Part shown: piece after piece, positions 21,423 to 50,362 of the stretch | How positions within the stretch are numbered: position 1 is the stretch's first letter | Layout: every line of letters begins with the position of its first letter | Assembly (NCBI GenBank): GCA_018064405.1 | Contig: JAGHVG010000003.1 | Location: forward strand, 49,152-113,151 | Direction of reading: 5' to 3' | Source: Candidatus Enterousia scatequi | Lineage (GTDB): Bacteria; Pseudomonadota; Alphaproteobacteria; Rs-D84 | Length of the DNA: 64,000 nt | The notes under the pieces: model-generated | Seen by the model: the letters and a program-made list of their open reading frames with translations, nothing else | Databases searched by the model: none | What the model was told of the DNA's origin: nothing | Program-made: the position numbers and the translations under genes

Positions 21423-24400
21423 TTATTTATGTTTCTTAAATTTTGTGCGTAATCTTTCCATCGCAAAGAATAATGCAGGGGTCAGTACAAATGTCCACAG
21501 CAAACTGGCGCCCATACCACCAATCATAACCGCCGACATTGCGCGTTTCAAGCCATCAGCCGCCCATAGTTGTGGCAACATCCCAGCCATAATCGCAATA
21601 GATGTCATTAAGACCATATTTTTCTTATCCGATAATTCTGTCCACAATGCATCATACATATTTTCACCATTACGGATACGATTTATCGTTGGTTCCAAAA
21701 CCAAAATATTATTATTAACAACCAATCCAACCAACATAACAAATGCTAACATCGCGCCAACATTCATTGATGCACCAGACAAAAATAATAATATAAACAC
21801 ACCCGCAAAACTGGTCAAAATTGATGTAGCAATTGTAAATGGATGTGTCAAAGAATTCAAAATCGCAGCAAGCAACATAAATGTCAGAACTGTTGCTAAT
21901 AAAAATGCAATTCCAATTTCGTGTGTTGATTCGGCCTGGGTTTCAGACATTCCACCAAACCCAGTATGATAGCCAGGTTTCCAATCCATTTTTGCTATTT
22001 CAGATTCAATTTTTTGTTGAACAGGTCCAATCGTTGATTTACCAATATTTATATCAATTTCGGTAATTCTTTCCTTGTTCAGACGATTAATATTTGACGT
22101 TGCAGCCACTGTTTCTATATCGCCCAAATCGGACAAAGATACCATGCCACGTGGTGAATTAACATATGCATTTTGAAACATTTGATTTGTTTTAAACGGA
22201 CGCGCAAATTCCAATATGATTGGATATTCTTCCCCATTTTCCTTATATTTATAACTATCATTTCCATACAATGCTGTACGTAATACTGTTCCTGCATAAG
22301 AATTGCTGATACCCCAAGCACTCATTTTATCGTCATCTGGGACAAAACGAATTTCATTATTCGGGCTCTGTTGTGCCAAGACCGCACTTTGCACTTCTGG
22401 GATATCGTTTATAATTTGTATTAAACGATTTGCATAGTCATTACGTATTTCGTTATTTTCACCATAAATATTTAGCACCATATCAGACGATATACTGGAC
22501 ATAGATTCACCTGCACGTATTTGAATTTCGGCATCTGGGATTTTTGCCAATTCTGGTAACATCTTTTGCGTTAACATTTTATCTGAAATTCTGCGGTGTC
22601 CCCTGTCTACTAATTTCACCTTTACCGCGATATTTTGCAGACCGCGTTCACCAATTTTTGTTGTCACGTTTGTAACCTCTGGGAATTCGGATAGAACTTG
22701 TTCAATTTGCTTTGATATATCAAGCGACTTGTCATACGTTGCCCCCATAGGCGCACGTGCAACAATGTTTATTTCATTATTATCCGTTGATGGTTGGAAT
22801 TCATTTCCAATAAAACGTGTTAACATTGCAGATAAAACCAATACTACAACAGCCAATAAAATTGTTATTCCTGAATGTGCGTGTTGAAAATCAAACAAAC
22901 GACGATAATTTTTGGATAGTGTGGTTTTGGTTTGTTTTTTCTTTTTATCGCCAGTTATACGCAAAATCTTGGCAATCATCATTGGGGTCAGTGTAAAAGA
23001 AAACACCAATGACAACAAAGTTAAATAAACGACAGTCATTCCAAACTGGGCCATAAACTGTCCGACAATTCCACCCATAAATGCCAACGGTAAAAACACA
23101 ACAACGTTTGTGCCAACACCCGCCAACACCGACACAGCAACACGTTTTGTACCATCTATGGCGGCATCTTCTGGGGTTTTGCCAGAACGCATTTCTTGCA
23201 GTGCAGATTCTATCATAATAATTGCATTAGACACCAATGTTCCCAGTGCAGACGAATACGCCAACAATGTCATAACATTTATTGTAAAGCCATTTAAATC
23301 CATAAAGAACGCCCCAGCAATTAATGATGCAGGTATCACAACGCCAGCAATAATTGTTGAACGCCAATTACGTGTAAATGCCAGCAACACCAAAATAGTG
23401 AACACCACCCCCAGCACAATACCGTTTATTGTATCGTGTGTTTCTTGTGACACAGTAATAGATGAATCATTTACAATCTGCATTTCAGCCGATGGAAAAC
23501 GCGATTTTAAATCAGCAATATAATCAGGCATTTTTTTATTAAGTTCACCAGAAATCTTGACCGCATTACCATCAGATGATTTTACCACAGATGCAATAAC
23601 AACATCCTGGCCGTTGTAACGTGCGCCATTAGCAATATCGCGTGCCGCATCACGAATTGTTGCAACGTCTGATAATTTAAAGTTATGACCTTCGGCTGTA
23701 ACTATACGTAAATCGCCAATTTCTTGGACAGATGCAAATTCACCAACAAATCGGACACTAGCAGAATCAACATCAGATTCTATCTTGCCCCCAGGAACAT
23801 TAAGATTTTTATTTGCCAACGCAGAAACGATATCTATTATCGTAACCCCACGTGCAGACATTTCATCTGGCGACATTTCTATACGCACAGCACGTTTTTG
23901 CCCACCAAATATAGATACACTTGCAACACCACTAATACCGGTTATTTTATTAGACAACACATCATCAACATAATCAACCAATGCACGCGGTTCTGCACCA
24001 TATAAAACAATATCAACCACAGATTGTTGCAGTGGATTCAATTTTTCAACAACTGGTTGTTTCAAATCATCGGGGAATTCAGAAGCAATAGAATCTATTT
24101 TTGTTTTAACCTCTGATGCTTTGTCATTAACATTTACACCCAAATTAAATTCCGCCATCACATAGCCACCGTTTTCATAAACCTGGGACGTAATTTTTTT
24201 TAATTCAGAAACCTGGGATATCGCATCTTCGGCTTTTTTGACAACCTGTGATTCAATTTCAGATGCTTCGGCACCTGGATATACAAATGTGGCAGTTACC
24301 ATCGGGAAATCAATGGACGGTGTGCGTTCAACATTCATACGCGGAAAAGAATATATACCCAAAACAACCCACAACAAAACAAACATAACCGTTGTAATAG

Positions 24401-24425
24401 GTCTGCGCACAAAAAATTTTAACAT
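21423..24425 (-). CDS. acrB: RND multidrug efflux transporter, AcrB/AcrD/AcrF family
   Basis: 1000 aa with 12 TMs and two large periplasmic loops. Typical HAE1 length and hydropathy. Confidence 0.9.
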   Translation of the reverse strand: MLKFFVRRPITTVMFVLLWVVLGIYSFPRMNVERTPSIDFPMVTATFVYPGAEASEIESQVVKKAEDAISQVSELKKITSQVYENGGYVMAEFNLGVNVNDKASEVKTKIDSIASEFPDDLKQPVVEKLNPLQQSVVDIVLYGAEPRALVDYVDDVLSNKITGISGVASVSIFGGQKRAVRIEMSPDEMSARGVTIIDIVSALANKNLNVPGGKIESDVDSASVRFVGEFASVQEIGDLRIVTAEGHNFKLSDVATIRDAARDIANGARYNGQDVVIASVVKSSDGNAVKISGELNKKMPDYIADLKSRFPSAEMQIVNDSSITVSQETHDTINGIVLGVVFTILVLLAFTRNWRSTIIAGVVIPASLIAGAFFMDLNGFTINVMTLLAYSSALGTLVSNAIIMIESALQEMRSGKTPEDAAIDGTKRVAVSVLAGVGTNVVVFLPLAFMGGIVGQFMAQFGMTVVYLTLLSLVFSFTLTPMMIAKILRITGDKKKKQTKTTLSKNYRRLFDFQHAHSGITILLAVVVLVLSAMLTRFIGNEFQPSTDNNEINIVARAPMGATYDKSLDISKQIEQVLSEFPEVTNVTTKIGERGLQNIAVKVKLVDRGHRRISDKMLTQKMLPELAKIPDAEIQIRAGESMSSISSDMVLNIYGENNEIRNDYANRLIQIINDIPEVQSAVLAQQSPNNEIRFVPDDDKMSAWGISNSYAGTVLRTALYGNDSYKYKENGEEYPIILEFARPFKTNQMFQNAYVNSPRGMVSLSDLGDIETVAATSNINRLNKERITEIDINIGKSTIGPVQQKIESEIAKMDWKPGYHTGFGGMSETQAESTHEIGIAFLLATVLTFMLLAAILNSLTHPFTIATSILTSFAGVFILLFLSGASMNVGAMLAFVMLVGLVVNNNILVLEPTINRIRNGENMYDALWTELSDKKNMVLMTSIAIMAGMLPQLWAADGLKRAMSAVMIGGMGASLLWTFVLTPALFFAMERLRTKFKKHK

Positions 24426-24441: not shown

Positions 24442-25017
24442 TTACTTTGATTCTTGAACCTTGGCCCCTGGCACTACATTTGACAGTATTACCATGTCGC
24501 CATCATTTAAACCATGTGTTATTAAAACCCGGTTTGCATCTTCACGCGCAATAATAACCTTTTGCGCAACGGCAACGCCATCTTTAACAACGAAAACCTG
24601 ATTATCATGAACCGCATATACAGGCACAAAATAACCATTACGACGGTATTCGGCATATTGCAATCCATCGGGCACGCCACGTGTTTTTATCACGTGCATA
24701 CCTGTATCCAAATCTATCTTGGACGATACAGAAACAATTTTTCCCGTAGATACTGATTGTCCTGCGCGGAACAAACCAACCCGTGCACCTGTTACCAATG
24801 CACGATTATTTTTTATTGTTAATGGTTCGTACAGGATATCTGTTTCGTTTTTGACAATCATTGTCTGAACAGGAACACCGAATTCTGTTTCCATGCGTGA
24901 GATATTAAACACAACACGATTATGTTCCGCAACCAATGTCCAGATTCTGAATCCGATCCAAAACGCAACCCCAACAATGACCAATACATACAATATTTTT
25001 TTCCAGCGTTGCAACAT
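24442..25017 (-). CDS. short (191 aa) RND periplasmic adaptor (membrane-fusion protein) apparently lacking the alpha-helical hairpin
   Basis: N-terminal TM anchor (ILYVLVIVGVAFWIGF) followed by beta-barrel/lipoyl-like segments (NRALVTGARV...GKIVSV...NQVFVVKDGVAVAQKVIIAREDANRVLI). Sits between tolC and acrB. Confidence 0.6.
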   Translation of the reverse strand: MLQRWKKILYVLVIVGVAFWIGFRIWTLVAEHNRVVFNISRMETEFGVPVQTMIVKNETDILYEPLTIKNNRALVTGARVGLFRAGQSVSTGKIVSVSSKIDLDTGMHVIKTRGVPDGLQYAEYRRNGYFVPVYAVHDNQVFVVKDGVAVAQKVIIAREDANRVLITHGLNDGDMVILSNVVPGAKVQESK

Positions 25018-25021
25018 TGTT

Positions 25022-26347
25022 TTACTTCCTTAGTTTGTTCACAGATTCTTGCGCCATCAAAATGTTATATTTTGAATTTATTAACGCCATATCCAGTTGA
25101 TACAGACCAGATGAAACATCAGCTAATTCCACAGCAGATGTTTGACCCGATGCAAATCTTTCCTGGGAAAACTGATATGCCTTGGCCGCTAAATCACGCG
25201 CATTTTGCAAACTTTCCAGATTTCCACGCAAATGATTATATTTTTTTATTGCATTTGTATACTGTTCAGACACAATCTTTTTAGATTTGTATAAATCTTG
25301 ACGTGATGCCTCTGCATTCATGGCATCAACCGTTGCATTTGCACGATGCAACCCCCCAGAAAAAATAGGAACCTGCAAGGACAATCCCCAATATGCCGCC
25401 TGGGTACCTGCCTTGTCAAACAAGTGATCAACGCTATTACCCATTGAATTATAACTATAATTACCAACCGCTGCCAATGTTGGATATCCATTTGCACGTT
25501 GTGACGATGCCTTGGATTGATACATATTAACCTGTTCTTGCAAAACGTCCCACTCTGGCGTTGACGATAATTTTTCAGGAACATTCAATTCTGCAAAATC
25601 AGACGGAAAATCATCCACCAAATTTAGTTCTTCATTTACATCTATACCAGACAAAATTTTTAACATTCTGTGTGCAGTATCACGGTTAAATTCTGCATCG
25701 GACAAATTTATTTCCTTGGATGCGATATCTGATTCTATTTTGACCAGATTACTGCGATTTGCGCGACCTGCACCCGTTAATTTATTCTTAGATGCCACAG
25801 CATCAGACAAATCTTTACGCGCCAATTCAACAATTTTATCAGTCATCTTGGCAGTCCAATACATATCCGTAGCGCTATATTTTATTGCACGGCGTGTCAT
25901 TTCACGACTGGATTCAGACATCTTAATCGCACCACGCACACTATCAACCGCATTACCAATTTTGCCAAACGTGTAAATTGGCTGTGTAATTGACAATCCC
26001 GCCATAAATATATTGTCAGGAATTGTAAATTTTGCGTCTTCACCTAACTGTGACTGAATTAACTGACCCAGTTCTGGGGGCAAAGCAAAACCTTCACTAG
26101 AAAACGGACGTTCAACATTAACCAAACTCATATAATTTGCAGACGCATCTACGCTAAACCAACGTTTTGCATTAACTGCGTCTAGTTGCGCCTTGGCCAA
26201 ATTTACGTTTGCTTCGGCTTTTTTCAAATCATGTGATTCTGATAACATTTTGTTTACCGTATCTGACAGCGATAAATCCAATGCATATGCGCCAGGCACA
26301 CCGCCACACATAACAATACAAGAAACAAAAAACAAAAACTTACGCAT
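25022..26347 (-). CDS. tolC: TolC-family outer-membrane efflux channel
   Basis: Signal peptide and two repeats of the TolC coiled-coil/beta-barrel architecture. 441 aa. Confidence 0.8.
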   Translation of the reverse strand: MRKFLFFVSCIVMCGGVPGAYALDLSLSDTVNKMLSESHDLKKAEANVNLAKAQLDAVNAKRWFSVDASANYMSLVNVERPFSSEGFALPPELGQLIQSQLGEDAKFTIPDNIFMAGLSITQPIYTFGKIGNAVDSVRGAIKMSESSREMTRRAIKYSATDMYWTAKMTDKIVELARKDLSDAVASKNKLTGAGRANRSNLVKIESDIASKEINLSDAEFNRDTAHRMLKILSGIDVNEELNLVDDFPSDFAELNVPEKLSSTPEWDVLQEQVNMYQSKASSQRANGYPTLAAVGNYSYNSMGNSVDHLFDKAGTQAAYWGLSLQVPIFSGGLHRANATVDAMNAEASRQDLYKSKKIVSEQYTNAIKKYNHLRGNLESLQNARDLAAKAYQFSQERFASGQTSAVELADVSSGLYQLDMALINSKYNILMAQESVNKLRK

Positions 26348-26789
26348 TTTTAACCTCTAACTTACTTAAAATACTGTTCATAGTTTTCATACAACGGGAT
26401 AATTCGGCCTCGTCCTCACACGAAAGGGGCGCGGTTAATTCATCAATTGCATTTCCCAATGCATCAAATGCCGTCATCGCCAATGCAGTTCCCGATTCGG
26501 TCAATTCATACCATGTATTACGACGATCGTTTTCATCAACACTGTGTGACACCAATCCATCGCGTTCCAACATACGAAACACTGCACACAGGTTCGGTGT
26601 TGATACCATTTCCCGTTGGGCAATATCTTTTAATAATGCGCGTCCCCCAAGGTGCAGGCGTAATACCAAAGCAATATGCTTTTGCGAATAATTGCTGATC
26701 TTAGAAAAATCACACTTTAACCGATTCGCCAAATGGTCAACAATCATGACGTTTTCTTTCATCAGTTTAATAAATTCCTTGTGCGCCAT
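26340..26789 (-). CDS. marR: MarR-family transcriptional regulator
   Basis: From MAHKEFIKLM. Winged-HTH signature (LRLHLGGRALLKDIAQREMVSTPNLCAVFRMLERDGLV...DENDRRNTWYELTESG). Overlaps the tolC start by 8 nt. Confidence 0.8.
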   Translation of the reverse strand: MAHKEFIKLMKENVMIVDHLANRLKCDFSKISNYSQKHIALVLRLHLGGRALLKDIAQREMVSTPNLCAVFRMLERDGLVSHSVDENDRRNTWYELTESGTALAMTAFDALGNAIDELTAPLSCEDEAELSRCMKTMNSILSKLEVKNA

Positions 26790-26951
26790 AGTAAATCCTT
26801 TTTTGATTATTGGGCAACCGCAATCGTTAAAAAACTTAATGATTATAAATTTTAATAATTGAATTGCAAGCATTATTTTTAATAAATTTTTCAAACCAGC
26901 AAAAATATTATTGCAAATCCTAGAAAGTGATTTATAATTCAGCGTACGTAT

Positions 26952-27025
26952 TGGGGTGTCGTCTAATGGTAGGACAAGAGATTTTGGTTCTCTTTATCAT
27001 GGTTCGAATCCGTGCGCCCCAACCA
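26952..27025 (+). tRNA. trnQ: tRNA-Gln (anticodon UUG), CCA encoded
   Basis: TGGGGTGTCGTCTAATGGTAGGACAAGAGATTTTGGTTCTCTTTATCATGGTTCGAATCCGTGCGCCCCAACCA. Acceptor stem has a U1-A72 pair, as in E. coli tRNA-Gln. Anticodon stem is AGAGA/TCTCT with loop UUUUGGU. Confidence 0.8.
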
Positions 27026-27085
27026 AAAATTCAACACAGCATAAGTCATTGATTTATAATTCGTCTTAGGAAAGAGGGTTCTCGT

Positions 27086-28003
27086 ATGTACAAATATGGT
27101 TTTTACCGTCGGGTCACATCCGTAGTTGCGGGTATTTTTGGAACAACCAAAGCTGCGCGCCGCTTAAATCGGGATAAAATTAGATATAAAGGATTGATTT
27201 CCACAACTGGCGAATCTGTTTTACCACGAATAAAGTTCGCAGAAAAAATACCTGTGGCGTTCTGTTTTGATTCACGTGGATGCAAGATGGCCGCTGTGAC
27301 GATAAAATCCCTGCTGACGGCATCTGATGGACGCTGTGATTATGATGTTTATTGTGTTATATCCAAAGATGTTGACAAATCTTTGTGCGATATTATTCGC
27401 GGTGTAATAAAGGGTTCTGGGTCAACAATACATTTTGTGACGGCAAATACTGATTTTGATAAATCTAACCATCATGGCTGGATCGTTGCCGTGTGGTACA
27501 GATTGATGCTGCCAAAATTGTTACCAAACGTAAAAAGAATTATATATGCGGATATTGATACTTTGTTTTTACGCGATTTAATAGATATTTATGAATACGA
27601 TTTACAAACGAATGTAATTGCCGCTGTTCCAACCAGAACAGATGGATATATAAATTCTGGATTTTTGCTGATGGATTTGGAAAAAATTCGCAAAGAAAAA
27701 CTTTATGATAAATGGGTATCTGTTTCTAAGGAATACGATTTTAAAAACCCAGATCAAGATGTGTTAAATCATACATTAAAGGGACGTATTGCTTTCTTGC
27801 CATTAAAATACAATTTTCAGTTATCACACGGTTCACGAATATTCAAAATATATTCTGAAAGTCAACTGGATGATTTAAAACATAATTTAGTGGTTTTGCA
27901 TTATTCAGATTTTATGAAGCCATGGGGCCCACGCAAAAAAAGACCTGTATTTTCTGAATTATGGTGGAAAATTGCTCGTCCGTTAGATTTATTTCAAGAA
28001 TAG
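27086..28003 (+). CDS. glycosyltransferase family 8 (retaining, LgtC/WaaJ/GspA-like)
   Basis: GT8 motifs: IPVAFCFDSRG...YDVYCV, DxD (IYADIDTLF), NSGFLLMDL, and the HYSDFMKPW C-terminal motif. Has a ~60-aa basic N-terminal extension. Confidence 0.75.
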   Translation: MYKYGFYRRVTSVVAGIFGTTKAARRLNRDKIRYKGLISTTGESVLPRIKFAEKIPVAFCFDSRGCKMAAVTIKSLLTASDGRCDYDVYCVISKDVDKSLCDIIRGVIKGSGSTIHFVTANTDFDKSNHHGWIVAVWYRLMLPKLLPNVKRIIYADIDTLFLRDLIDIYEYDLQTNVIAAVPTRTDGYINSGFLLMDLEKIRKEKLYDKWVSVSKEYDFKNPDQDVLNHTLKGRIAFLPLKYNFQLSHGSRIFKIYSESQLDDLKHNLVVLHYSDFMKPWGPRKKRPVFSELWWKIARPLDLFQE

Positions 28004-28078
28004 AGTTGTTTTTGCAACAATCTTTTGATACATTTTTGGACTTGTTATGATATAATTTTGTATAAGACAGGTGTATCT

Positions 28079-28850
28079 ATGTTGATAGAAAAATTTATAA
28101 ATTCTTGCAAATCTGATATAGATGTTTATGGTGGTAATAAAAAGTGTTTCCTTTTTGCAGATTATGTTTTGTTGCAAGGCAGCTTTAAAGAAAATGAAGT
28201 AAAAAAAAGAAATTAAAATCGGCAACGAATTAAAAAACAATGGTGTTAATATAATCCCAACCATAGAATATAAGGTTATTGGTCCGAAAAACGAATTGGG
28301 TTATTCAAAAGGATATATCCTGCAACCCAGAGCAAAAGGTGTTTGGTTATATACTCGTAATATGACAAATAGTGAATATAAAAAGAGATTACACGATATT
28401 GCAAAAATGGATTATCGTAAATTAGACAAATTTGTTTCTGATTGGATAGCTATTGTAGAGGCCGGTTTGCAGATAGACCCTAGTAAATGTGAAAACTTTT
28501 TTTATTCTGGCACTAATATTAGTTTTATTGATCTAAACTTACGAAACGGTTCAAGCAATTTAAAAGAGATTTTTTTAGAAATCATGTCTGTTTTAACTGG
28601 ACTAGGATTAAAATATCAAGGAACAAACATTAGTGATTGTATCCAAATTATAACAAATACAGCCGGTTTGTTTTTGAAAAAGAAGTTATTAAACATCAAA
28701 GACATTCAAGATGTTTTATATTCCCGTTATAGTTCGCTGCTTAATAAATTTCAAATCGCTAATATCATTACATCCCTAAATGCACAACAGCATTCTGGGC
28801 AACCAGCAAATAATACGCACTTGCTTAATGTTATGATTGAAAAACAATAA
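28079..28850 (+). pseudogene. hypothetical gene interrupted by a +1 frame change at an A8 tract (28201-28208); the two ORFs (28079-28216 and 28203-28850) would join into a ~255-aa protein
   Basis: Frame 2 reads ...ENEVKKRN* at 28216. Frame 0 is open from 28203 (KKEIKIGNELKNNGVNIIPTIEYKVIGPKNELGYSKGYILQPRAKG...) through the annotated 28296 ORF. The frame switch lies exactly in the GTAAAAAAAAG run. Confidence 0.4.
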
Positions 28851-28950
28851 AACCAACACATGACTTATTTATATTTTGTCAACCAAACATATCTTGACTA
28901 ATCATTTTTTTATGCAATCATTATCAGACAGGAAAAAGGTAAAACATAAA

Positions 28951-29967
28951 ATGAAAAAAAATGTATTTTCAAAAATAGCACTTGCGACAGCACTTGGGAC
29001 GGCTGTTGTTGCACAATCTAAGGCGCAGGACAAAAAAGATCCCGAACAACAAAAAATTGATATATTGTATCAGAAGTTGCGCGCAACAAAGGACATTTCA
29101 ACATATACTATGCCGGATTCATTGCGACATGTCCAAAGGACATACAATGCACTACGTGCAACAGTAGAAAAACAATCTGCAGCATTTGATTCCTTGATAA
29201 GCGTTAATTGGGATATGTATTTGCAAGCATATGACAAGTTTGCCGTTAGAATTGGCAAGCAATTTCAATTGTCTAAATATTTCAAACCATGGGAACTAAT
29301 TACACTAAAGAAACTGGTGCAAGAAGGTAGCCTGTATGCACCTATGGACTATTTTCAGCAAAACGCGCTTGCTAGGATAATGAATGACACAGCATCATTG
29401 GCGGATTTATTGGAATTTTGTTCCGATATAGATTTTGATGTCATATGGCAACATTTTGAAACAAAATTCTTACCCCGAGATTCATCCAATGAATACGACG
29501 ATTACTCACATTGGTCACCAATAGTTTTTATAGACGATAACATAACTAAAGATGTTAACAAAGAGTTGATGTTGCTGTCTGATAGTTGGGCATCGGCTTA
29601 TGTTGATAAACAAATCTATCTAATGAAGATTGATCGTGATAAGTTAATATCTTCGTTGGATGGCACGTATGTTGCAACCCAAAAGAAGCAAATCAACGAA
29701 ATGTACCTGAAAAACAAAGATACGTTTGTTGCTGATTTTACTGCGGAAAACGGTGGGTTAGATGTGCCTAATTTTAGAATTCCTGAAATGAAAGAAATAA
29801 AGACACAATATTTAAAAAACGATGCACGGATAATATCTTTCATGGATCAGTATCAGGAGATGTATTCTGCAGAAGACCGTCTACAAACGTTTGTTAATAA
29901 AGAACGCGAAACACTGGCTGATAGTTTAAACGTATTGCTAGAAAGACGGAAACAACGTAGCAAATAA
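28951..29967 (+). CDS. secreted hypothetical protein (signal peptide MKKNVFSKIALATALGTAVVAQS)
   Basis: 338 aa from MKKNVF; the annotated ORF starts 25 codons earlier. No recognisable domain. Confidence 0.5.
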   Translation: MKKNVFSKIALATALGTAVVAQSKAQDKKDPEQQKIDILYQKLRATKDISTYTMPDSLRHVQRTYNALRATVEKQSAAFDSLISVNWDMYLQAYDKFAVRIGKQFQLSKYFKPWELITLKKLVQEGSLYAPMDYFQQNALARIMNDTASLADLLEFCSDIDFDVIWQHFETKFLPRDSSNEYDDYSHWSPIVFIDDNITKDVNKELMLLSDSWASAYVDKQIYLMKIDRDKLISSLDGTYVATQKKQINEMYLKNKDTFVADFTAENGGLDVPNFRIPEMKEIKTQYLKNDARIISFMDQYQEMYSAEDRLQTFVNKERETLADSLNVLLERRKQRSK

Positions 29968-29989
29968 TCAGAGCATATTATAAACAAAA

Positions 29990-30030
29990 TCATGGCGCGC
30001 GCAGTTTTTCTGTACGCGCCATAAATTTTC
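29990..30030 (+). terminator. terminator hairpin ATGGCGCGC...GCGCGCCAT followed by a T-run
   Basis: 8-bp GC stem flanking AGTTTTTCTGTA, then AAATTTTCTTTTTTTG. Confidence 0.45.
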
Positions 30031-30095
30031 TTTTTTTGTTACATAAACAAATTTGTTGAAAAATGAACTATATGCATGTAATATTGTTGGGTTGT

Positions 30096-30170
30096 GCCCC
30101 TATCGTCTAGCGGTTAGGACATCAGATTCTCATTCTGGTAACATGGGTTCGATTCCCGTTAGGGGTGCCA
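30096..30170 (+). tRNA. trnE: tRNA-Glu (anticodon reads CUC), CCA encoded
   Basis: GCCCCTATCGTCTAGCGGTTAGGACATCAGATTCTCATTCTGGTAACATGGGTTCGATTCCCGTTAGGGGTGCCA. Architecture matches bacterial tRNA-Glu (GTCTAG.GG..AGGAC D-arm, 4-nt variable loop). Anticodon loop is UUCUCAU. Confidence 0.8.
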
Positions 30171-30180
30171 AGATTTTTCC

Positions 30181-30561
30181 TTAAGAATTTAATATTTCTT
30201 GTTTGGCCTGGTGTAATAAATCCAGCAACACATCAATTGTATCCGCATCCAGTTTTGCAGATTTGCCACCAACATTATTGTGGGTATTCGGGTTGTTATT
30301 AGCCACAGTATCAGCCGATGGAAATTCGCCATCATGCAGCATCTTTTTAACACCTGCAATTGTCATACCACGGTTATATAATAAATCTTTTATCGTTGCT
30401 ATTTTTTCAACCGTATCAGCGCGGTAGTAACGGCGCCCACCCGCCCCAGTTGTTGGACGAATTGCCGTTGGAAACTGTTTTTCCCAATAGCGCAAAGTGT
30501 GCGCCGGCACAGATAAACGTTTTGAAACATCGTTTATTGATGTAAAATATTCTTTATCCAT
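30181..30561 (-). CDS. MerR-family transcriptional regulator
   Basis: N-terminal HTH (INDVSKRLSVPAHTLRYWEKQF...GGRRYYRADTVEKIATIKDLL). Located 13 nt downstream of gyrA on the same strand. Confidence 0.8.
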   Translation of the reverse strand: MDKEYFTSINDVSKRLSVPAHTLRYWEKQFPTAIRPTTGAGGRRYYRADTVEKIATIKDLLYNRGMTIAGVKKMLHDGEFPSADTVANNNPNTHNNVGGKSAKLDADTIDVLLDLLHQAKQEILNS

Positions 30562-30573
30562 GCCGACACCTTT

Positions 30574-33306
30574 TTATTCTGCGACAGTTGTATCTGATTC
30601 ATCCGCCGCATCATCATCGGAAACTATAGATATCGCAGATACAACCTTTTCATTATCCGCCGTTCTGAACAATGTCACACCCGCCGTTGAACGGCCCGCA
30701 ATACGAACATCTGAAACAGGGGTACGAATAATCTTGCCACCATCCGTCACCATAATAATATCATGGTTATCTGCCACAGGGAACGATCCCGCAACCGCGG
30801 TGTTTTTACCGCCCAGTTTAATATTCGTAAATCCGTTACCGCCACGATGGGTTGTGCGATATTCATACGAACTGGTGCGTTTACCGAATCCGTTTTCAGA
30901 AATCGTTAAGATGAATTCTTCGGATGCAGCCATTTTTGCCATCTGGTCAGAATCCAAAACAACATTTGTTTCTTCTTCATCTGAATCCGCCTCTTCATCA
31001 ATACCGGTTTCTGCACGACGTGCCGCACGTGATTGTTTGATATAAGCACTACGAACCGCACTATCATCTTCGCCATGCGTCAGCATTGCCATACCGATAA
31101 TCCGATCATCCTTGGCCAATGTTAGTCCGCGAACACCCGTTGAATTACGGCCTGCAAAAATACGAATCTCTGGCACTGGGAAACGGATACAACGACCGCG
31201 ATATGTCGCAAGGAATACATCCTGATCTTCGTTACATGGCAGAACAGAAATCAAACTGTCACCATCATCTAACTTCATCGCAATCTTACCGTTTGCACGA
31301 ATTGAATCAAAATCAGACATACGGTTACGACGCACTGTCCCGGATGCAGTTGCGAACATCAAGAAATGTTCCTTGCCTGATTCCTGGGCACGTTTAACGT
31401 CTTCTTCTGACACAGGTAAAATTGCAGTAATTGTTTCGTCTTTTTCAAGTGGTAACAAATTCACCAACGGGCGTCCCTTGGCCGCAGCTGCTGCCTCTGG
31501 TAATTTATATGTTTTTAATTTATAGCACAACCCCTTCGATGAAAAGAACAACAATGGTGTATGCGTGTTTGCAACAAACACCTGAACCACATAATCATCA
31601 TCCTTGGTCGCCATGGCGTTACGGCCCTTGCCCCCACGTTTTTGTGCGCGATATGTATCCAACGCAACACGTTTGATATATCCCGTGTTAGATACAGTCA
31701 CAACCATATCTTCACGTGCAATCAAATCTTCAATATCAATATCTATTTCTGCATCAGATATTTCTGTTCTGCGTGGGGATGCCCAACTATCGCGGACAGA
31801 TGCCGTTTCGTCACGAATGATTTGAATGATACGCTCATGACTGCCCAATATATCCAGCAAGTCCTTAATCACCGCACCCAGTTCTGTCAAATCAGCGTGC
31901 AATTTATCACGTTCCAGACCCGTCAAACGATGCAACTGTAATTCCAAGATTGCACGTGCCTGATCCTCAGACATATAGAACATACCATCACGATATTCAG
32001 TATTTGGATCATCAATCAATTCAATGTATGACGCAATATCAGATGCCGCCCAGCCACGCGCCAACAATGCCGCACGGGCTTCATCAGGATTCGCACTGGA
32101 TTTAATTAATTCAATCACTTCGTCCAGATTGCCAACCGCAACTGACAGCCCCAACAAAGTATGCGCACGATTACGCGCCTTGTTCAAATCAAATATAGTG
32201 CGACGACGTATAACTTCTTCACGGAATTCAATGAACGCATCCAACACAGTTCGCACCGTAAACAACATGGGACGACCGCGATTCAGCGCCATCATATTTA
32301 CCGGGAAATTCGTCTGCATTTCTGTATCCTGGAATAGATGATTCAGAACAACGTCATAAATCGCATCACGTTTTAATTCAATTACAATGCGCAGGCCTTC
32401 CTTGGACGATTCGTCACGAATTTCGGCAATACCTTCTATCTTTTTTTCCTTGGCCAATTCAGCAATTTTAATAATCATCTGGGCCTTGTTCACCTGATAT
32501 GGAATTTCATCAACAACAATTGCCTGGTGATCATGAAATGTTTCAGGGTGCGTCTTTGCGCGAACAATTATTGAACCACGACCCGTTGTGTGTGCCTTGT
32601 AAGAACCAGCACGTCCCATAATAATTGCGCCAGTTGGAAAGTCAGGTCCAGGGATAATCTGGAACAATTCATCATCAGATATTTCACGATTATCCAATAT
32701 CGCTAAAATACCATTACATACTTCGCCCAGGTTATATGTTGGAACATTTGTTGCCATACCAACCGCAATACCCGATCCACCATTTACCAAGAAATTTGGG
32801 AATTTGGTTGGCAAAACGATTGGTTCCTGCAATGTTCCATCAAAGTTCGGCTGCCAATCAACAGTATCCTTGTCCAAATCATCCATAAGCGATGCGCCAA
32901 GTTTTGATAAACGCGCCTCTGTATAACGCATAGCGGCGGGTTTATCGCCATCACGCGAACCAAAGTTACCCTGACCCTGGACCAACATTTCACCCATGGA
33001 AAAATCCTGGGCCATACGGGCCATGGCCTCGTAAATAGACGAATCGCCATGCGGGTGATAACGTCCCATAACATCACCAACGATACGCGCAGATTTAACC
33101 GTTGCCTTGGTTGCGGGTGCAACTTCGTTCATAACATACAAAATACGGCGGTGCACCGGTTTACAACCATCGCGAACATCAGGTAATGCGCGGTCAACAA
33201 TAACCGACATTGCATAGTCCAAAAAGCTGGTCCGCATTTCGTGTTCAATTGACGATTGTGGAACTTTCACAGCACATACTTCATTTACATTTTCATTTTC
33301 TGACAT
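30574..33306 (-). CDS. gyrA: DNA gyrase subunit A
   Basis: Conserved motifs: [26 protein letters not shown], the active-site Tyr region ([10 protein letters not shown]), and the GyrA box plus beta-pinwheel C-terminal domain. Start chosen at MSENEN (33306); the ORF is open to 33339. Confidence 0.95.
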
Positions 33307-33389
33307 AACTTTATTTTCCCCTATGTATAACAGTGTCAAGATAGCAGATTTTTGCCATTGACGTCAAGAATTATTGCCAAAAAAATGCA

Positions 33390-37610: not shown

Positions 37611-39254
37611 TTATTCCTGGCCCTGTGGTTTTGGTATAACAAACGTATCGTTATAATACGACAAGAAACGCGTTCCTGTGGCACAATATATTTTTTGCAG
37701 TGAATCCTTATACTCACGAACCGCGGCAACCCAACGTTCGTTAATATCACTCTGGGCACCCTGGTACGCAACAAATCCTCCCAGCGCGCCACCCGCACCC
37801 GCACCAATCAAGGTTGACTTTAACCGTGCCTTGTTCCCCAAATCAACAATTCCACCATCAGATGCATCCTGATAAATTGGGTTAAAGAAATTCATGTCAT
37901 AGTCCGTTGCCCCCGTAGAATCACCCATATTGTTACGCAGATATATTGGACCACTTAATCTGCCACGCAAATCGGACCAATCTGATTTTTTCCAACCGAA
38001 TGGCTTATTTGGTAATGTGTTTAACATTTCAACCATAACTGCCTTGGCCGCACCATTTGGAATAGCCGCCGATTCCACAAGATAATACATAGCTGCATCA
38101 AAATCACATTGGGTTGCAACAGAACCGTTAACCTGTTGACAATATGCAGGCGACGCCACTGCAAATTTTTCCAATTCATCTGCATTCATATCAGATAAAT
38201 ATGTGACTTGTTTCTCACGATCCTTGATATTCGTATCCAAATACTTGTCCATATTGGTCAACTTAACCTGGGTCAGATTCACGATTTGACATGCAGAATT
38301 GTCACTTGTACACTCTAATCCGCGACTGTTTTTTATATCATAATAGTATTTTTTATTTTGGTCTGTTTGCTCGGTTTCAATGTACGCGCCCCACAGGCAT
38401 TTGGCTGATCGGCCATCTATTTTACAATTTTCAATTCGCATCACAGAATCGCCGGATGCCGCCATATTTCCAATTACACCACCCGCGGCCATGTTCACAC
38501 CCGTTGATAAAATAATATCACCTGCAACCTTGCCAGAATAAGTGCTGCCCGCCATCAATGCCGCACCCGACAACGCGCCAATTGCGGTTCCTGTGATTTT
38601 ACCCTTGTCTGTTCCAATCAAGCCATTTTTACCAACATCATTTTTGCCAGCTATGTTCCCACCAATTCCACCAACCAATGCCGCAGCAGCAATTTTTAAC
38701 CCAGCATTTTGTTTTTGTTCCTGGTCCATGACCTTGGTTACATCTTCTATTGTTGGTTCTTTATCCGCAGGGAATATGACATTTTCAGCCACAGCCGTAA
38801 TAGAATATTCAGGGAAATAATCAATATTACATTTTATCCCGTCGCCAGTAGCAACATTCGCGCGTGCCAAAACCAAGTCACTGCCGTTTTCACCCATTTG
38901 ATATCCACGCAATTCAACAACCGCGACACATTGACGCGGTCCAGCCGCAGACAGCCCTGCCGTTGGTTTATCAATCGCAAACGACCCAGTTGGGTAAATC
39001 ATAGAACACATATCTAAATCAGTGTCGGTCGAAATGTTATCCGCAACGACGTTTGGCGCGGCCACCATTTGTTGGTTCACAGGCACTGTTTCGAGAATCT
39101 GCGCAGTTGTTGGCGCAGCATATAAATTATTTTGCATATTCATTTTGGCGTTATAGACACGCGCAGAATTATTATCTATGCGCAACGCAGCCACGGCTTC
39201 TATATCTGGGACAGAAACAAACAAAACTGGTAAAATAATTAAACTTTTTTTCAT
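37611..39254 (-). CDS. large secreted protein with an internal glycine-zipper segment
   Basis: From MKKSLIILPVLFVSVPDIEAVAA. Gly-zipper-like stretch AAALVGGIGGNIAGKNDVGKNGLIGTDKGKITGTAIGALSGAALMAGSTYSGKVAG. Multiple Cys pairs. The annotated ORF starts 12 codons upstream at 39290. Confidence 0.55.
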   Translation of the reverse strand: MKKSLIILPVLFVSVPDIEAVAALRIDNNSARVYNAKMNMQNNLYAAPTTAQILETVPVNQQMVAAPNVVADNISTDTDLDMCSMIYPTGSFAIDKPTAGLSAAGPRQCVAVVELRGYQMGENGSDLVLARANVATGDGIKCNIDYFPEYSITAVAENVIFPADKEPTIEDVTKVMDQEQKQNAGLKIAAAALVGGIGGNIAGKNDVGKNGLIGTDKGKITGTAIGALSGAALMAGSTYSGKVAGDIILSTGVNMAAGGVIGNMAASGDSVMRIENCKIDGRSAKCLWGAYIETEQTDQNKKYYYDIKNSRGLECTSDNSACQIVNLTQVKLTNMDKYLDTNIKDREKQVTYLSDMNADELEKFAVASPAYCQQVNGSVATQCDFDAAMYYLVESAAIPNGAAKAVMVEMLNTLPNKPFGWKKSDWSDLRGRLSGPIYLRNNMGDSTGATDYDMNFFNPIYQDASDGGIVDLGNKARLKSTLIGAGAGGALGGFVAYQGAQSDINERWVAAVREYKDSLQKIYCATGTRFLSYYNDTFVIPKPQGQE

Positions 39255-39295
39255 ACTCTCTCCCCACCACACATATACACGCCAAGACAATATTT

Positions 39296-40381
39296 TTAGA
39301 ATTGCAATCTTAATCTGGCACCAACATCAATCATTCCCAGGCGTCCGCTTTCGTACCAATTTGTAAATTGGAACACAGCATCATATGGTGCTTCATAATC
39401 TGGGGGCATCCCTGTTGCTAACAATTGAGTTTGAGATACGACGATACTGCCAGACGTTTGCACTTTACCAAGATTGGCATAACGTGCAAATAAATCTAAC
39501 TTTAAACCACCAGACAAATCTGCCGTTACACCCGCTTCAAGCGAGAAAGCTAACCGTTCCACAGAACCACCGTTGTGATAACCATAAATATCATAAACCC
39601 CAGTAATAGGATTAGGATCCGAAGGATCAACTGTTGAAGGATCTTCAACAAAATAATACGGCCCACTATCATAAACAACATAATCGGCGATGGTATTAAA
39701 TGCCACCCCAACACCACCACCAATATACGGACGCAAAGATCCACCGGCAATATACCCTGTAAATGAATCAATATTATAATAAATGTTTAACATTGCCGCA
39801 TTTGCAGTAATTGCACCACCACTGGTTTTTGCAGGAACATATCCACCACTACCATCAGCCGTATCAACAGAATCAGGATAAGACAACCCCGAATACCGCA
39901 AATAAGAAACATCTATACGTAAATCACTGTTTACGGCGGCACCGACAGAAACCTGTAATGGAATTACTGTATCTGATTTAAAATTCCCCTCTCGAAAAGC
40001 ACCAGGGGCGTCGTAAGACCCAGATTCACCTGCATAATCAGCAGAAATGCCACCATTAACACTAGCAGTATATGCGGCAGATATACCAACATATAAACCA
40101 CTATCCGCCAAACGATCATAATCCGCAGGTTGATAATATTGACGTCCTGCAGTTGTGGCCGCCGTTCCAACACGTGGCAACGCACCCGTTATGCGTGTTG
40201 GCTGCGCAGCAACTGCAGAATTTACAGCCACCGTCCTATTCCCATTTGAAGGTAAATAAACAACCGGCGCAGATGCGGAAACCGCACGTCCGTTTTGATA
40301 CACCGGATACGCGGCATCAACCGATGTTGCATCAACAATCAACACCCCAGCCAAAAGCCCAAGAAAACCAATCTTTTTCAT
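39296..40381 (-). CDS. outer-membrane beta-barrel protein
   Basis: Signal peptide MKKIGFLGLLAGVLIV...VDA. Alternating amphipathic beta-strands rich in Gly/Tyr. C-terminal aromatic residue (...ARLRLQF). Confidence 0.6.
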   Translation of the reverse strand: MKKIGFLGLLAGVLIVDATSVDAAYPVYQNGRAVSASAPVVYLPSNGNRTVAVNSAVAAQPTRITGALPRVGTAATTAGRQYYQPADYDRLADSGLYVGISAAYTASVNGGISADYAGESGSYDAPGAFREGNFKSDTVIPLQVSVGAAVNSDLRIDVSYLRYSGLSYPDSVDTADGSGGYVPAKTSGGAITANAAMLNIYYNIDSFTGYIAGGSLRPYIGGGVGVAFNTIADYVVYDSGPYYFVEDPSTVDPSDPNPITGVYDIYGYHNGGSVERLAFSLEAGVTADLSGGLKLDLFARYANLGKVQTSGSIVVSQTQLLATGMPPDYEAPYDAVFQFTNWYESGRLGMIDVGARLRLQF

Positions 40382-40479
40382 CCTCGTCTGCTTTCCTTCA
40401 GACATAGTATATCATAAAATGTCTTTTGTGTAAAAGGTTTTATTACACCCCGAAAATACTTTTATATAAACAAAATCTA

Positions 40480-41502
40480 CTAAAAGACCACATTAACCCG
40501 CACACCCGCTTCTGCCTTGATATCGGTTCCATTTTGGGACTGTGCATGCGATTTATCAAACGTATATTCTGCAAACGCAGCAAATTGAATCATGTCGGTC
40601 ATTTGATACGCACCAACGACCTTTAACACATATTCATTCCAACCATCATTCATATCAGCAGTTTGTGCAAGCAAACTATCAACCACCTTTTGTTGCCACT
40701 CAGGGCCAACGATAGATTCATTTAATTTTGTATGAATACTTTTGATACTGTTATCCCTGTGTTCAATAAATTCAAAACCACCACCCACAGACCATTTCTT
40801 AGACAACTGAACAAATGCATTTATACCACTATTAATCTCATGCGTACTGGCCAAATCCACAGATATTTCACTTGGGATACCAACCATACCCATCGTAATA
40901 GGCACACCAACAGCAATAGGACTATTTTGATCTATCCTTACTTTGTTATTATGATTTCCAAATGTTTGCAAATATTCGCCATACGCAGACAACGTAAAAT
41001 TGCCCCACGTCTTGCCTAGTTTGGTTCCACCATACATTCCCCAACGACCGTTAGAATAATTATCATATGTAAAATTACCATTTGAATATTTACCCTCCAT
41101 CGGCATCAGGGCTGATAAATATGCCTCACCATAAACATCCCAAAGGATTGGTGAATCATCCGCTAAAATACGATACGTCAATCCGACACGACCACGATGC
41201 ATACCCTTGCGATTAATGGAATCATCCTGGGTCCACCCAAAACGCCCATGCACCGCCAAGCGATCTGTTATACCATAACCCAAATCTTCGGTAAAACGCC
41301 ATATTGGAAATTCGTCATTTCCGTCCATGTGTTTTTTCTTTAATGCTTCTGTATGATCAGAACGCTTATACATCAAACCCATACCTGATTTAGAATAAAA
41401 ATCACCCGCAGATGGCAAATACATCGGATGTTCCATATTCCCCGCGAACGCGTAACCCGTTATCATAGTGGCGGTGCAAATCACGAATAAAAAATGTTTC
41501 AT
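40480..41502 (-). CDS. outer-membrane beta-barrel protein (porin-like)
   Basis: Signal peptide MKHFLFVICTATMITGYAFA. Beta-strand periodicity. C-terminus ...GVRVNVVF. Confidence 0.6.
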   Translation of the reverse strand: MKHFLFVICTATMITGYAFAGNMEHPMYLPSAGDFYSKSGMGLMYKRSDHTEALKKKHMDGNDEFPIWRFTEDLGYGITDRLAVHGRFGWTQDDSINRKGMHRGRVGLTYRILADDSPILWDVYGEAYLSALMPMEGKYSNGNFTYDNYSNGRWGMYGGTKLGKTWGNFTLSAYGEYLQTFGNHNNKVRIDQNSPIAVGVPITMGMVGIPSEISVDLASTHEINSGINAFVQLSKKWSVGGGFEFIEHRDNSIKSIHTKLNESIVGPEWQQKVVDSLLAQTADMNDGWNEYVLKVVGAYQMTDMIQFAAFAEYTFDKSHAQSQNGTDIKAEAGVRVNVVF

Positions 41503-41575
41503 CACATAACTCCCTTTCATCACAGCGTAACTTTTAAGATTTTATACTAATAGACATACAAATGTCAAAAAGATA

Positions 41576-48440: not shown

Positions 48441-49172
48441 TTAATTCGCGCGCGCAACACGACAAAATGTTACACCATATACAGCCCTTGCCCCAGCATT
48501 TAGCAGCACGCGACGTAATTCTGAAAACGTCGCCCCAGATGTCATAACATCATCAACCAGTAAAATCTTTTTCCCACATATTTTATCAGGTCGCACAACA
48601 TTAAATGCGCCACGAATGTTTTGCGCACGCTGCATCGCATTCTTGTGCCCCATTGATTGACGATATTTTCGTTTAATAGAGTTAACATCCATTTTGACAC
48701 CTAATGCATTTGCAATCGGACGTGCCAATAACATCGCCTGGTTATAGCCACGCTTACACAGACGCAAATATGCCAGTGGTACCGGCATAACAACATCTGC
48801 ATCCACATTGATATCGCGCATTGCCCAAATCATAGCGCGCGCCATAAACAATGAATATTTTGTTTTACCACAATGCTTAAACGGCAACATCGCAACCTTG
48901 GACACATCATCATAAACACATGCAGAACGTATCCAATCTAGTTCACATTTACCCGCAGCACACGTTGGACACAGTGTATCAAGCGATAAATCTACATCAG
49001 ACGAAAACGGATATCCACACTTCGCGCATCTCGCCCCAGTTATCCAATTAAACACAGACCAACAATCAGAACACAACTCACCATGTGTTGATACACGATT
49101 TTCACATAATGGACAAGATGGCGGATACAAAAATTCAATTACAGAATGAAAAACACTGCGCACCGTTACCAT
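48441..49172 (-). CDS. comF: ComF-family protein (phosphoribosyltransferase-like, competence)
   Basis: N-terminal double zinc ribbon (CPLCEN...CSDCW...CAKCG...CPTC). PRTase motif LLVDDVMTSGAT. Confidence 0.8.
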   Translation of the reverse strand: MVTVRSVFHSVIEFLYPPSCPLCENRVSTHGELCSDCWSVFNWITGARCAKCGYPFSSDVDLSLDTLCPTCAAGKCELDWIRSACVYDDVSKVAMLPFKHCGKTKYSLFMARAMIWAMRDINVDADVVMPVPLAYLRLCKRGYNQAMLLARPIANALGVKMDVNSIKRKYRQSMGHKNAMQRAQNIRGAFNVVRPDKICGKKILLVDDVMTSGATFSELRRVLLNAGARAVYGVTFCRVARAN

Positions 49173-50362
49173 GCCAAACTTTTATAGGTTTTATTGCCAG
49201 TGGTTTTACCATATTTATTTTTTTGTTGTTGGGTCAGCGTTTCATATTGATCATTTGATATTATACGCAACACAAAACCTTCTTCTTCACTGCGTGATGC
49301 CAACACAGGCACAATACGTTGTTCAGCAACCCCCGTATCACGCAATACCTGTTCAACAATCGCCAAACGACGCGCAGCCAATTTTTTATCATCCGCATCA
49401 GATATCACAGATTTTGGAATTTCAACCTGGATAGCACGTTTTGGATTATTTACAACAATCCCTGCGTATTCTGTTAATAGATTAAAATTATCACGTGACA
49501 ACGCTGAATCTTCGTTACGGAATTTTATTTTTATCTCTAGCGGGCGAACACCACCCTCTTCGGATAAATCGCGTTGTGACGTAAAACCTTCAATAGATGT
49601 GGACATATCAGATGCCACATCAAATTTGTTATCTATCTGATATGTGGACAGATGCTTGTTTTCTGACAAAAATGTTTTGCGAAACGCCTTGCGTAATTCA
49701 GTCGGCGACATTTTTGTCATATCATCACGCACAGCAGCAATTTTTGGTGACGTAGTACGTTCAACCCTGCGCACGACAACATCGTCCATCGGAACAACCA
49801 TCTGTGAAATCTTTACGGGTTCAGATTCTGGAGCAACCACATCATTTTTTGCAACCAATGGTGATTCAATTTTAATTGGCGCGACCTTTACACTGGCATC
49901 CGCGCGACGTTGCAATTCATTTAAACGTGCGATTTGTTCATCAAATTCAGAATTCCTGGTCGGTTCCACGCGCGCAACCGACACAGGTTTTACAGGTTCT
50001 ACATCCAAGCTCTCCTCTGGCAAGAAACCATTTGAACTTAATACAGTAAATTCGTCACTGCGTGGCATACGTAATGGTGCATCAGACGATGCCCATAAAT
50101 TATCACTTGGACGATTAGGTGACAAAATATCACCACCCATTGCCAAATTATCATTTGGTTGCGCCACGATTGCTTTACGTGAAACGACGTTTTTACTAAC
50201 GAATTTATTTTGCGTTTTGTTTGACACCACCGGTTGCATCGGCACCCCAAACGCCGCACGTGCAGACACAGATCCCGCAACATCAACCGTTGGCAAATAC
50301 GATGCCGCAATCCCAGGCACAGCAAGCATTATACCGATAATTGATACAGATATAAAACGCAT
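49166..50362 (-). CDS. periplasmic hypothetical protein with a degenerate OmpA/MotB-like C-terminus
   Basis: Signal peptide. The C-terminus NFNLLTEYAGIVVNNPKRAIQVEIPKSVISDADDKKLAARRLAIVEQVLRDTGVAEQRIVPV resembles the peptidoglycan-binding OmpA_C consensus (N..LS..RA.aV...L...Gv...ri). Confidence 0.45.
   Translation of the reverse strand: MRFISVSIIGIMLAVPGIAASYLPTVDVAGSVSARAAFGVPMQPVVSNKTQNKFVSKNVVSRKAIVAQPNDNLAMGGDILSPNRPSDNLWASSDAPLRMPRSDEFTVLSSNGFLPEESLDVEPVKPVSVARVEPTRNSEFDEQIARLNELQRRADASVKVAPIKIESPLVAKNDVVAPESEPVKISQMVVPMDDVVVRRVERTTSPKIAAVRDDMTKMSPTELRKAFRKTFLSENKHLSTYQIDNKFDVASDMSTSIEGFTSQRDLSEEGGVRPLEIKIKFRNEDSALSRDNFNLLTEYAGIVVNNPKRAIQVEIPKSVISDADDKKLAARRLAIVEQVLRDTGVAEQRIVPVLASRSEEEGFVLRIISNDQYETLTQQQKNKYGKTTGNKTYKSLAW

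Follow-up and report, generated by a model that had tools for sequence, protein, structure and literature searches.

A conserved GT8 glycosyltransferase in a tRNA-bounded gene-turnover slot of Candidatus Enterousia scatequi

Three plus-strand genes lie between a tRNA-Gln and a tRNA-Glu gene in a 64,000-nucleotide stretch of Candidatus Enterousia scatequi (contig JAGHVG010000003.1, positions 49,152 to 113,151; here called the window). A reading of the sequence alone had taken them for a small horizontally acquired or effector islet. The interval is instead a conserved chromosomal slot of Rs-D84 gut Alphaproteobacteria, a hotspot of gene turnover and not an imported island. On balance, it probably holds an ancestral GT8 glycosyltransferase acting on envelope glycan, a recently gained and now broken kinase-like gene (KIN), and a fast-evolving secreted protein (SEC). 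ARAGORN confirmed the boundaries of the earlier reading, tRNA-Gln (anticodon UUG) at 26952-27025 on the left and tRNA-Glu (anticodon CUC) at 30096-30170 on the right, both on the plus strand. The 3,070 bases between them contain GT8 (27086-28003), KIN (28079-28216 and 28209-28850), and SEC (28951-29967) in that order. The GT8 protein exactly matches NCBI MBQ0013091.1, from a metagenome-assembled genome (MAG) of this species. Enterousia belongs to the uncultured order Rs-D84, has genomes mostly below 1 Mb, and has been predicted to inhabit animal guts as an obligate symbiont or parasite (PMC12306168).

Several lines of evidence show that GT8 is ancestral at this locus and was not imported. First, it is an old and widespread gene of the clade. 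Among 5.8 billion proteins searched, 137 were homologues at E ≤ 0.001, the best of which (60-76% identity) span all 305 residues, and full-length orthologues across the clade, N-terminal extension included, show 47-76% identity. A survey of GTDB with one genome per species gave 162 relatives; the comparisons of tRNAs, flanks, and neighbors reported here rest on the best 80 of these, nearly all of them gut or rumen Alphaproteobacteria/Enterousia MAGs. Second, the surroundings of the gene are kept. All seven loci that capture both tRNAs (L006, L007, L008, L011, L013, L016, and L032) have GT8 between tRNA-Gln and tRNA-Glu(CUC), a tRNA scan found tRNA-Glu(CUC) downstream of GT8 in 15 loci, and MarR-TolC or MerR-GyrA flanks like those of the window recur in several. 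For example, the MarR/RND flank also precedes tRNA-Gln in L006 and L008, and GyrA is 86-88% identical to the orthologues in the same flank of L012, L013, L015, and L023. The earlier statement that the genes have no housekeeping synteny was thus wrong for GT8 and partly wrong for SEC, and the adjacent tRNA pair for which relatives were to be checked (an empty site) was not seen in any of the related genomes examined. Third, GT8 has no single-nucleotide polymorphisms relative to L002, a strain 99.14% identical, compared to 11 differences in KIN (8 nonsynonymous), 9 in SEC (5 nonsynonymous), and 6 in the spacers. The gene is vertically conserved and under strong constraint. A point on the other side is that the synteny maps were drawn with a crude longest-open reading frame (ORF) gene caller and BLASTP clusters, so that they may be wrong in detail.

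The tRNA-Gln upstream of GT8 is not the same everywhere. Its anticodon is CUG in L004, L005, L009, L024, L027, and L029, which have another left flank, and UUG in L006-L016. This means that GT8 stays linked to a tRNA-Gln across rearrangements.

The rest of the interval varies. It is 3.1 kb long here, the smallest version seen, and 4.8-15.7 kb in related species, where differing gene sets include a LysR regulator, an M23 peptidase, autotransporters, kinases, and orphans. Even the place of GT8 in it changes, from first gene here to last in L006. When representatives of the clusters found in relatives, among them an autotransporter and two aminoglycoside phosphotransferase (APH)-like kinases (c1 and c2), were compared with the window by tblastn, only SEC matched. 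Such variation next to tRNA genes is reminiscent of tRNA-associated genomic islands, which are likewise tRNA bounded and variable in content between related genomes, and one low-GC accessory gene adds to the likeness. However, no integrase or recombinase stands beside the tRNAs, the three genes being the only ones inside and the flanking genes being MarR and MerR, and neither a direct repeat of a tRNA 3′ end nor another att repeat was found in 26000-31000. The slot differs from such islands in lacking an integrase, a duplicated tRNA 3′ end, and mobility genes, and in that its anchor, GT8, is ancestral. A mobile element was rejected on the absence of an integrase and att repeats. The pattern suggests that genes were gained, lost, and rearranged piece by piece in a permissive slot, and not that a discrete element integrated; in such a slot GT8 would stay while the other genes turn over.

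Base composition separates the three genes. KIN, with a GC content of 0.29-0.31 compared to a mean of 0.40, is the lowest of the 54 ORFs of the window (z -2.8), whereas GT8 and SEC stand at just z -1.3. KIN is also absent from all 80 related GT8 loci, and its homologues elsewhere occupy three unrelated neighborhoods. Because of these features, it is the one gene here that fits the description "accessory," and it was probably inserted into the slot in this lineage only. What survives of the proposed acquired islet is therefore a variable interval and one low-GC gene that the other GT8 loci lack; the ancestry of GT8 and the lack of an integrase or att repeats speak against the rest. Likewise, ancestral genes between the same tRNAs, with a GT8 that groups with lipopolysaccharide (LPS) enzymes, were named in advance as the outcome contrary to the islet; this was found for GT8 and not for the other two genes.

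The two short public contigs that overlap the locus, L001 and L002, break inside tRNA-Gln (window ~26988-26997), and L002 breaks also inside tRNA-Glu (~30125). These breaks suggest branching of the assembly graph caused by strain variation or repeats, and they fit strain-level variation at the boundaries of the interval.

The GT8 protein matches Pfam PF01501 (Glyco_transf_8) over residues 57-280 with an E value of 4.6e-29 and 102.2 bits (cut-off, 24.3), in agreement with its original assignment as a retaining-type glycosyltransferase. The catalytic domain is predicted to cover residues ~57-296, with the motifs D156-x-D158, D223-Q-D225, and H272...K278-P-W. In an alignment of 22 orthologues, D156, D158, D223, Q224, D225, H272, K278, P279, and W280 are invariant, and we take them to be the equivalents of the catalytic residues of LgtC. 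The basic N-terminal extension noted earlier is also real, because the family profile aligns to LgtC residues 4-254 beginning only at profile position 58. Residues 1-55 contain 13 K/R compared to 3 D/E; R25, R26, R29, and D30 are invariant in the same 22-orthologue alignment, and since the 55 residues are conserved in the orthologues, the extension is a feature of the family. LgtC, which presumably attaches to the membrane through its C-terminus, has no such module. In sister species, the c1 and c2 kinases beside GT8 start with a similar module, in which R-(R/D)-K-(V/I)-R comes after a few hydrophobic residues. This basic, amphipathic module probably holds GT8 at the membrane. A DUF1796 protein in L051 carries the basic motif at its C-terminus.

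GT8 is an LgtC/WbbM-like enzyme of the retaining type. Its most likely activity is the transfer of an alpha-linked hexose, on the cytoplasmic side of the inner membrane, to a glycan of the cell envelope, with the core of LPS or lipooligosaccharide (LOS) or a related surface polysaccharide as its probable target. The family profile matched WbbM (5.8e-21), 3tzt (4.6e-20), LgtC (3.2e-19), and GlyE (2e-17) in the PDB. WbbM and LgtC are its best relatives of solved structure by this profile (E 1e-19 to 1e-21), and the WbbM GT8 domain (Klebsiella O-antigen galactan), LgtC (a Neisseria LOS alpha-1,4-galactosyltransferase), and WaaI/WaaJ share with it the Pfam family and the DxD, DQD, and H..KPW motifs. 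The neighborhood in sister clades, where GT8 is ~50% identical, points the same way. PagL, a lipid A 3-O-deacylase (PF09411, 4.6e-9), is directly downstream of GT8 in 14 sister-clade loci, and in L049, L052, L053, L055, and L056, GT8 lies amid three GT2 genes, RgpF, Caps_synth, and one GT1 gene. The only NCBIfam match was the LPS 3-alpha-galactosyltransferase WaaI (NF011718, an equivalog). The WaaI-type enzymes are thus near relatives, and GT8 has an envelope-glycan context in sister clades, yet its score falls far below the equivalog cut-off (53.8 compared to 461 bits); by sequence, GT8 is related to WaaI but predicted not to be that enzyme.

This low score is one of several points that weigh against an LPS-type role. 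No lipid A or core biosynthesis genes were seen in the 64-kb window, and a literature search for LPS in Rs-D84 gave no useful result; LPS is expected in this species because of PagL in the sister clades and the TolC/RND genes. In addition, GlyE, which extends a protein O-glycan on a serine-rich adhesin, became the top PDB match by E value when the single GT8 protein was the query, and autotransporter adhesins often flank GT8 in relatives. These last two observations favor the chief alternative, namely, that GT8 is a protein glycosyltransferase that decorates surface adhesins (autotransporters, or exported proteins such as SEC) and not LPS. In relatives, GT8 often adjoins a 1,020-aa autotransporter (PF03797, 4.5e-29), and proteins of 1,400-1,900 aa often stand beside it that have a repeat-rich surface-adhesin look, as judged from their sequences and not from Pfam. 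However, the family profile ranks WbbM, 3tzt, and LgtC above GlyE, the interval of this genome contains no adhesin, the adhesin neighbors elsewhere are variable and occur on either strand, and the most conserved sister-clade neighbors are PagL and polysaccharide glycosyltransferases. Protein glycosylation is for these reasons unlikely, and a role in envelope glycan is preferred.

Other features of the GT8 neighborhoods were apparent. In the sister clade L037-L059, GT8 comes directly after a tRNA-Met(CAT) of opposite orientation and before the PagL-family lipid A deacylase. Of the close loci, about half have c1 or c2 next to GT8, either following or preceding it. The two are ~240-aa APH-like families, found for example in L025, L007, and L016 (c1) and in L035, L036, and L024 (c2). 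The c2 cluster passes the Pfam APH threshold, whereas c1 has no Pfam match but is homologous to c2 (hhalign, 97.9%) and retains a Q-G-D-x-x-x-N...D-W-E motif.

KIN, the second gene, is interrupted. Its 5′ fragment of 45 codons (28079-28216, plus strand) starts at the ATG at 28079, reads MLIEKF...EVKKRN, and stops at 28214-28216; NCBI lists it as a separate 45-aa hypothetical protein, KBS86_00775. The 3′ part (28209-28850, plus strand) continues in the +1 frame from an A8 tract at 28201-28208 to a stop at 28848-28850 and is annotated as another hypothetical protein, KBS86_00780. Removal of one A from the tract restores an ORF of 256 aa, and precisely this intact form occurs in L002, which has A7. 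The earlier description of a ~255-aa gene split at an A8 tract is therefore accurate. KIN is a real gene, because in addition to the intact form in L002 there are 20 other related clusters; the family of 21 clusters has members of ~250-295 aa, and the other 20 are 44-82% identical to KIN.

KIN represents a small family, unnamed and lineage restricted, for which a protein-kinase-like (PKL) fold is predicted and in which the catalytic-type residues are intact. Across the 21 sequences, K21, D133-P-S-K136-x-x-N139, and I-D151-L-N are invariant. An AlphaFold2 model of a 59%-identical homologue, P0123, had a pLDDT of 81 and a pTM of 0.78, and Foldseek found 84 PDB matches to it at E ≤ 1e-3, the top 50 of which were all PKL, with a TM of ~0.42. 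The matches include MSK1, AmiN, PknG, APH(3′), YihE, WaaP, and LegK7. The predicted fold matches the small PKL kinases APH(3′), AmiN, WaaP, and YihE/SrkA with a Foldseek probability of 1.0 and E values from 1.6e-5. In the model, the catalytic-loop-like D-P-S-K-x-x-N and the I-D-L-N motifs are placed between helix 112-127 and strands 140-149, at the positions expected for the catalytic loop and the DFG Asp of a kinase. KIN and the PKL kinases thus have in common an invariant D..K..N and a DFG-like I-D-L after an alpha-E-like helix. They differ in that the N-lobe of KIN is minimal and has no GxGxxG loop and in that K and N follow the Asp of KIN at D+3 and D+6 rather than at D+2 and D+5. What tells against the assignment is that the fold comes from the predicted structure of a 59%-identical homologue, at a modest TM of ~0.42, with no sequence-level support. 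KIN had no match in Pfam, NCBIfam, PADLOC, or the PDB, whether searched as a single sequence or as a profile, the PDB searches giving only noise; this includes the curated kinase families (Pkinase, APH, Choline_kinase, and Kdo/WaaP) in Pfam, NCBIfam, and the PDB. The possibility that KIN is a diverged copy of the c1/c2 kinases was rejected, as neither hmmsearch nor hhalign found a relationship (probability, <1%). The most distant homologue (295 aa), in L086 (167-7054), is directly upstream of a cluster of TcpQ, secretin, PilO-like, and T2SSE ATPase genes.

The A7/A8 change is the only indel in 3.1 kb between the window and the 99.1%-identical L002. Most likely, a one-base expansion from A7 to A8 by ordinary slippage broke KIN in this strain. 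Transcriptional slippage at poly-A tracts is known from endosymbionts to rescue such genes, so KIN would be a null allele here or, at best, weakly rescued. Homopolymer tracts also control phase-variable LOS genes such as lgtC and lic1 of Haemophilus and Neisseria. It is doubtful, though conceivable, that the A7/A8 tract is likewise an evolved contingency switch that toggles KIN within populations. The resemblance is that a surface-glycan locus has a neighbor gene switched by a one-base homopolymer change between near-identical strains: the tracts of the two differ by exactly one A, with A7 being ON and A8 being OFF. Furthermore, two of the three A8 tracts in the 64-kb window are in this 3-kb interval, the second (28954-28961, plus strand) directly after the start codon of SEC (ATG AAA AAA AAT), and the differences between strains in KIN and SEC are mostly nonsynonymous. 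However, the tract is in the kinase-like KIN and not in GT8, and it is short (7-8 A), eight bases being the low end for efficient slippage. It is also not conserved among orthologues. In KIN, A7 is just AAA AAA (Lys-Lys) after a codon ending in A, in an AT-rich gene; the tract is present in L002 and L086 and absent in L083 (TTA AAA CAG) and L084 (ATA AAA AGG). Because other family members lack it, the A8 allele looks like an ordinary slippage mutation and not an evolved switch. The SEC tract has the same length in L001 and L002, and only two alleles of the KIN tract, A7 and A8, were seen.

It is very improbable that KIN is intact in the organism and that the frameshift arose in sequencing or assembly. 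Homopolymers are error prone, and A8 was seen in the NCBI MAG and in a Logan contig, L001, that is 100% identical to the window over 4.7 kb, so the two may derive from the same reads, which lessens their value as witnesses to the frameshift. On the other hand, these two separate assemblies agree on A8, and short-read sequencing as a rule handles tracts of this length reliably. The preferred view is still that KIN was broken by slippage in this strain.

SEC (28951-29967, plus strand) is a lineage-restricted helical orphan of 338 aa. Its assignment as a signal-peptide protein was upheld: the N-terminus MKKNVFSKIALATALGTAVVAQSKA/QD shows, by inspection, the n-, h-, and c-regions of a Sec signal peptide (~28951-29025), and the homologues begin at the same Met. 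It has five close clusters of relatives and 13 representative clusters among 1.8 billion proteins. Homologues with 27-28% identity stand beside MerR-GyrA in L023 and L060, and because of this position SEC can be regarded as a gene that has long been at the slot's right edge but diverges fast. Its structure model is mostly helical with a pLDDT of 59 and the central 120 residues unresolved; because of this low confidence no fold was assigned, and a profile search of the PDB yielded only noise. SEC would be a mostly helical, quickly diverging protein that the Sec pathway exports to the periplasm or cell surface.

Each of the three genes is of a known kind: GT8 is probably an envelope-glycan enzyme, KIN belongs to a divergent kinase-like family, and SEC is an orphan among secreted proteins. 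An alternative proposal is that GT8, KIN, or both are type IV secretion system effectors, aimed at a host or partner cell and carried on a horizontally acquired, tRNA-inserted cassette. Several observations are in its favor. Genomes in this lineage are reduced, and an obligate life as symbiont or parasite has been predicted for it (PMC12306168). The window encodes VirB8 (1464-2120), VirB9/CagX (2141-3637), and VirB10/TrbI (3644-5971) on the plus strand beside NusG and tRNA-Trp, with no VirB11 or VirD4 after them in the window, and export of some proteins is conceivable because of these genes and because of the dependence on other cells proposed for the lineage. KIN is compositionally foreign, patchy, and kinase-like, with LegK7 among its Foldseek matches, and one homologue adjoins the secretin/TcpQ pilus cluster. 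Against this, GT8 is vertically conserved and strongly constrained, has PagL or glycan clusters beside it in sister clades, and groups with LPS, LOS, and O-antigen enzymes; glycosyltransferases of the Legionella Lgt, SetA, or clostridial-toxin type were not among its PDB matches (E ≤ 0.01 for the single sequence and E ≤ 0.001 for the profile). KIN has no signal peptide and no recognizable secretion signal, its kinase matches are generic, and it is broken in this strain; moreover, the interval has no integrase or att repeats. Nothing ties GT8, KIN, or SEC to a secretion system, and for GT8 the evidence points the other way, so the effector proposal is highly improbable.

A more elaborate form of these ideas would make the slot a dedicated contingency locus for partner interaction in a genome-reduced, VirB-bearing symbiont. 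GT8 would remodel the partner-facing surface, interchangeable kinases of two unrelated families (c1/c2 in most species and KIN here) would act with GT8 or be exported, and KIN would be toggled by poly-A slippage. This is very unlikely, and an ancestral GT8 in a slot of ordinary gene turnover is the preferred account.

The immediate flanks are regulatory and housekeeping genes. To the left, a MarR-type regulator (26340-26894, minus strand) is the last gene of an RND efflux block, also on the minus strand, with AcrB (21423-24425), an adaptor (24442-25017), and a TolC-like protein (25022-26347), as assigned by Pfam. The gene in the adaptor position has just 191 aa where a membrane-fusion adaptor is expected, has no Pfam match, and is 45-47% identical to genes in the same position in relatives. 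To the right are a MerR-family regulator (30181-30561, minus strand; Pfam MerR_1, 1.5e-20) and GyrA (30574-33339, minus strand). A candidate sigma-70-like promoter, TCAACA-18-TATAAT with 10 of 12 consensus matches, precedes GT8 at 27031-27060 on the plus strand; it is a candidate only, as the region as a whole holds no more such sites than shuffling predicts. The 13-mer TGATTTATAATTC, which includes a -10-like element, occurs both just 5′ of tRNA-Gln (26928-26940) and just 5′ of GT8 (27050-27062) and may be a promoter element common to the two. After SEC, a hairpin with a U-rich tail that resembles an intrinsic terminator (29992-30022, plus strand) has a folding energy of -20.6 kcal/mol (z -4.17), a stability reached by 0 of 200 shuffles. 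Elsewhere in the window, Pfam recognizes nothing at E ≤ 1e-3 in runs of large ORFs (347-559 aa) at 37611-41523, 49166-50362, and 57526-62874, which encode lineage-specific proteins and are interspersed with housekeeping genes (MurG, FtsW, MraY, PBP1, and ValRS).

The value of these findings is mostly corrective, in that a tRNA-bounded trio resembling an imported effector islet turned out to be a lineage-conserved envelope-glycan gene in a turnover hotspot. KIN is a lead in itself, as an unnamed, lineage-restricted kinase-like family, and the basic N-terminal module common to GT8 and the APH-like kinases suggests a shared localization device for envelope-glycan enzymes in the clade. More broadly, Rs-D84/Enterousia genomes of less than 1 Mb still keep a hypervariable slot rich in surface functions, namely, glycosyltransferases, small kinases, autotransporters, and orphan secreted proteins. 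The slot is thus a place to seek determinants of the partner-dependent lifestyle proposed for these bacteria.

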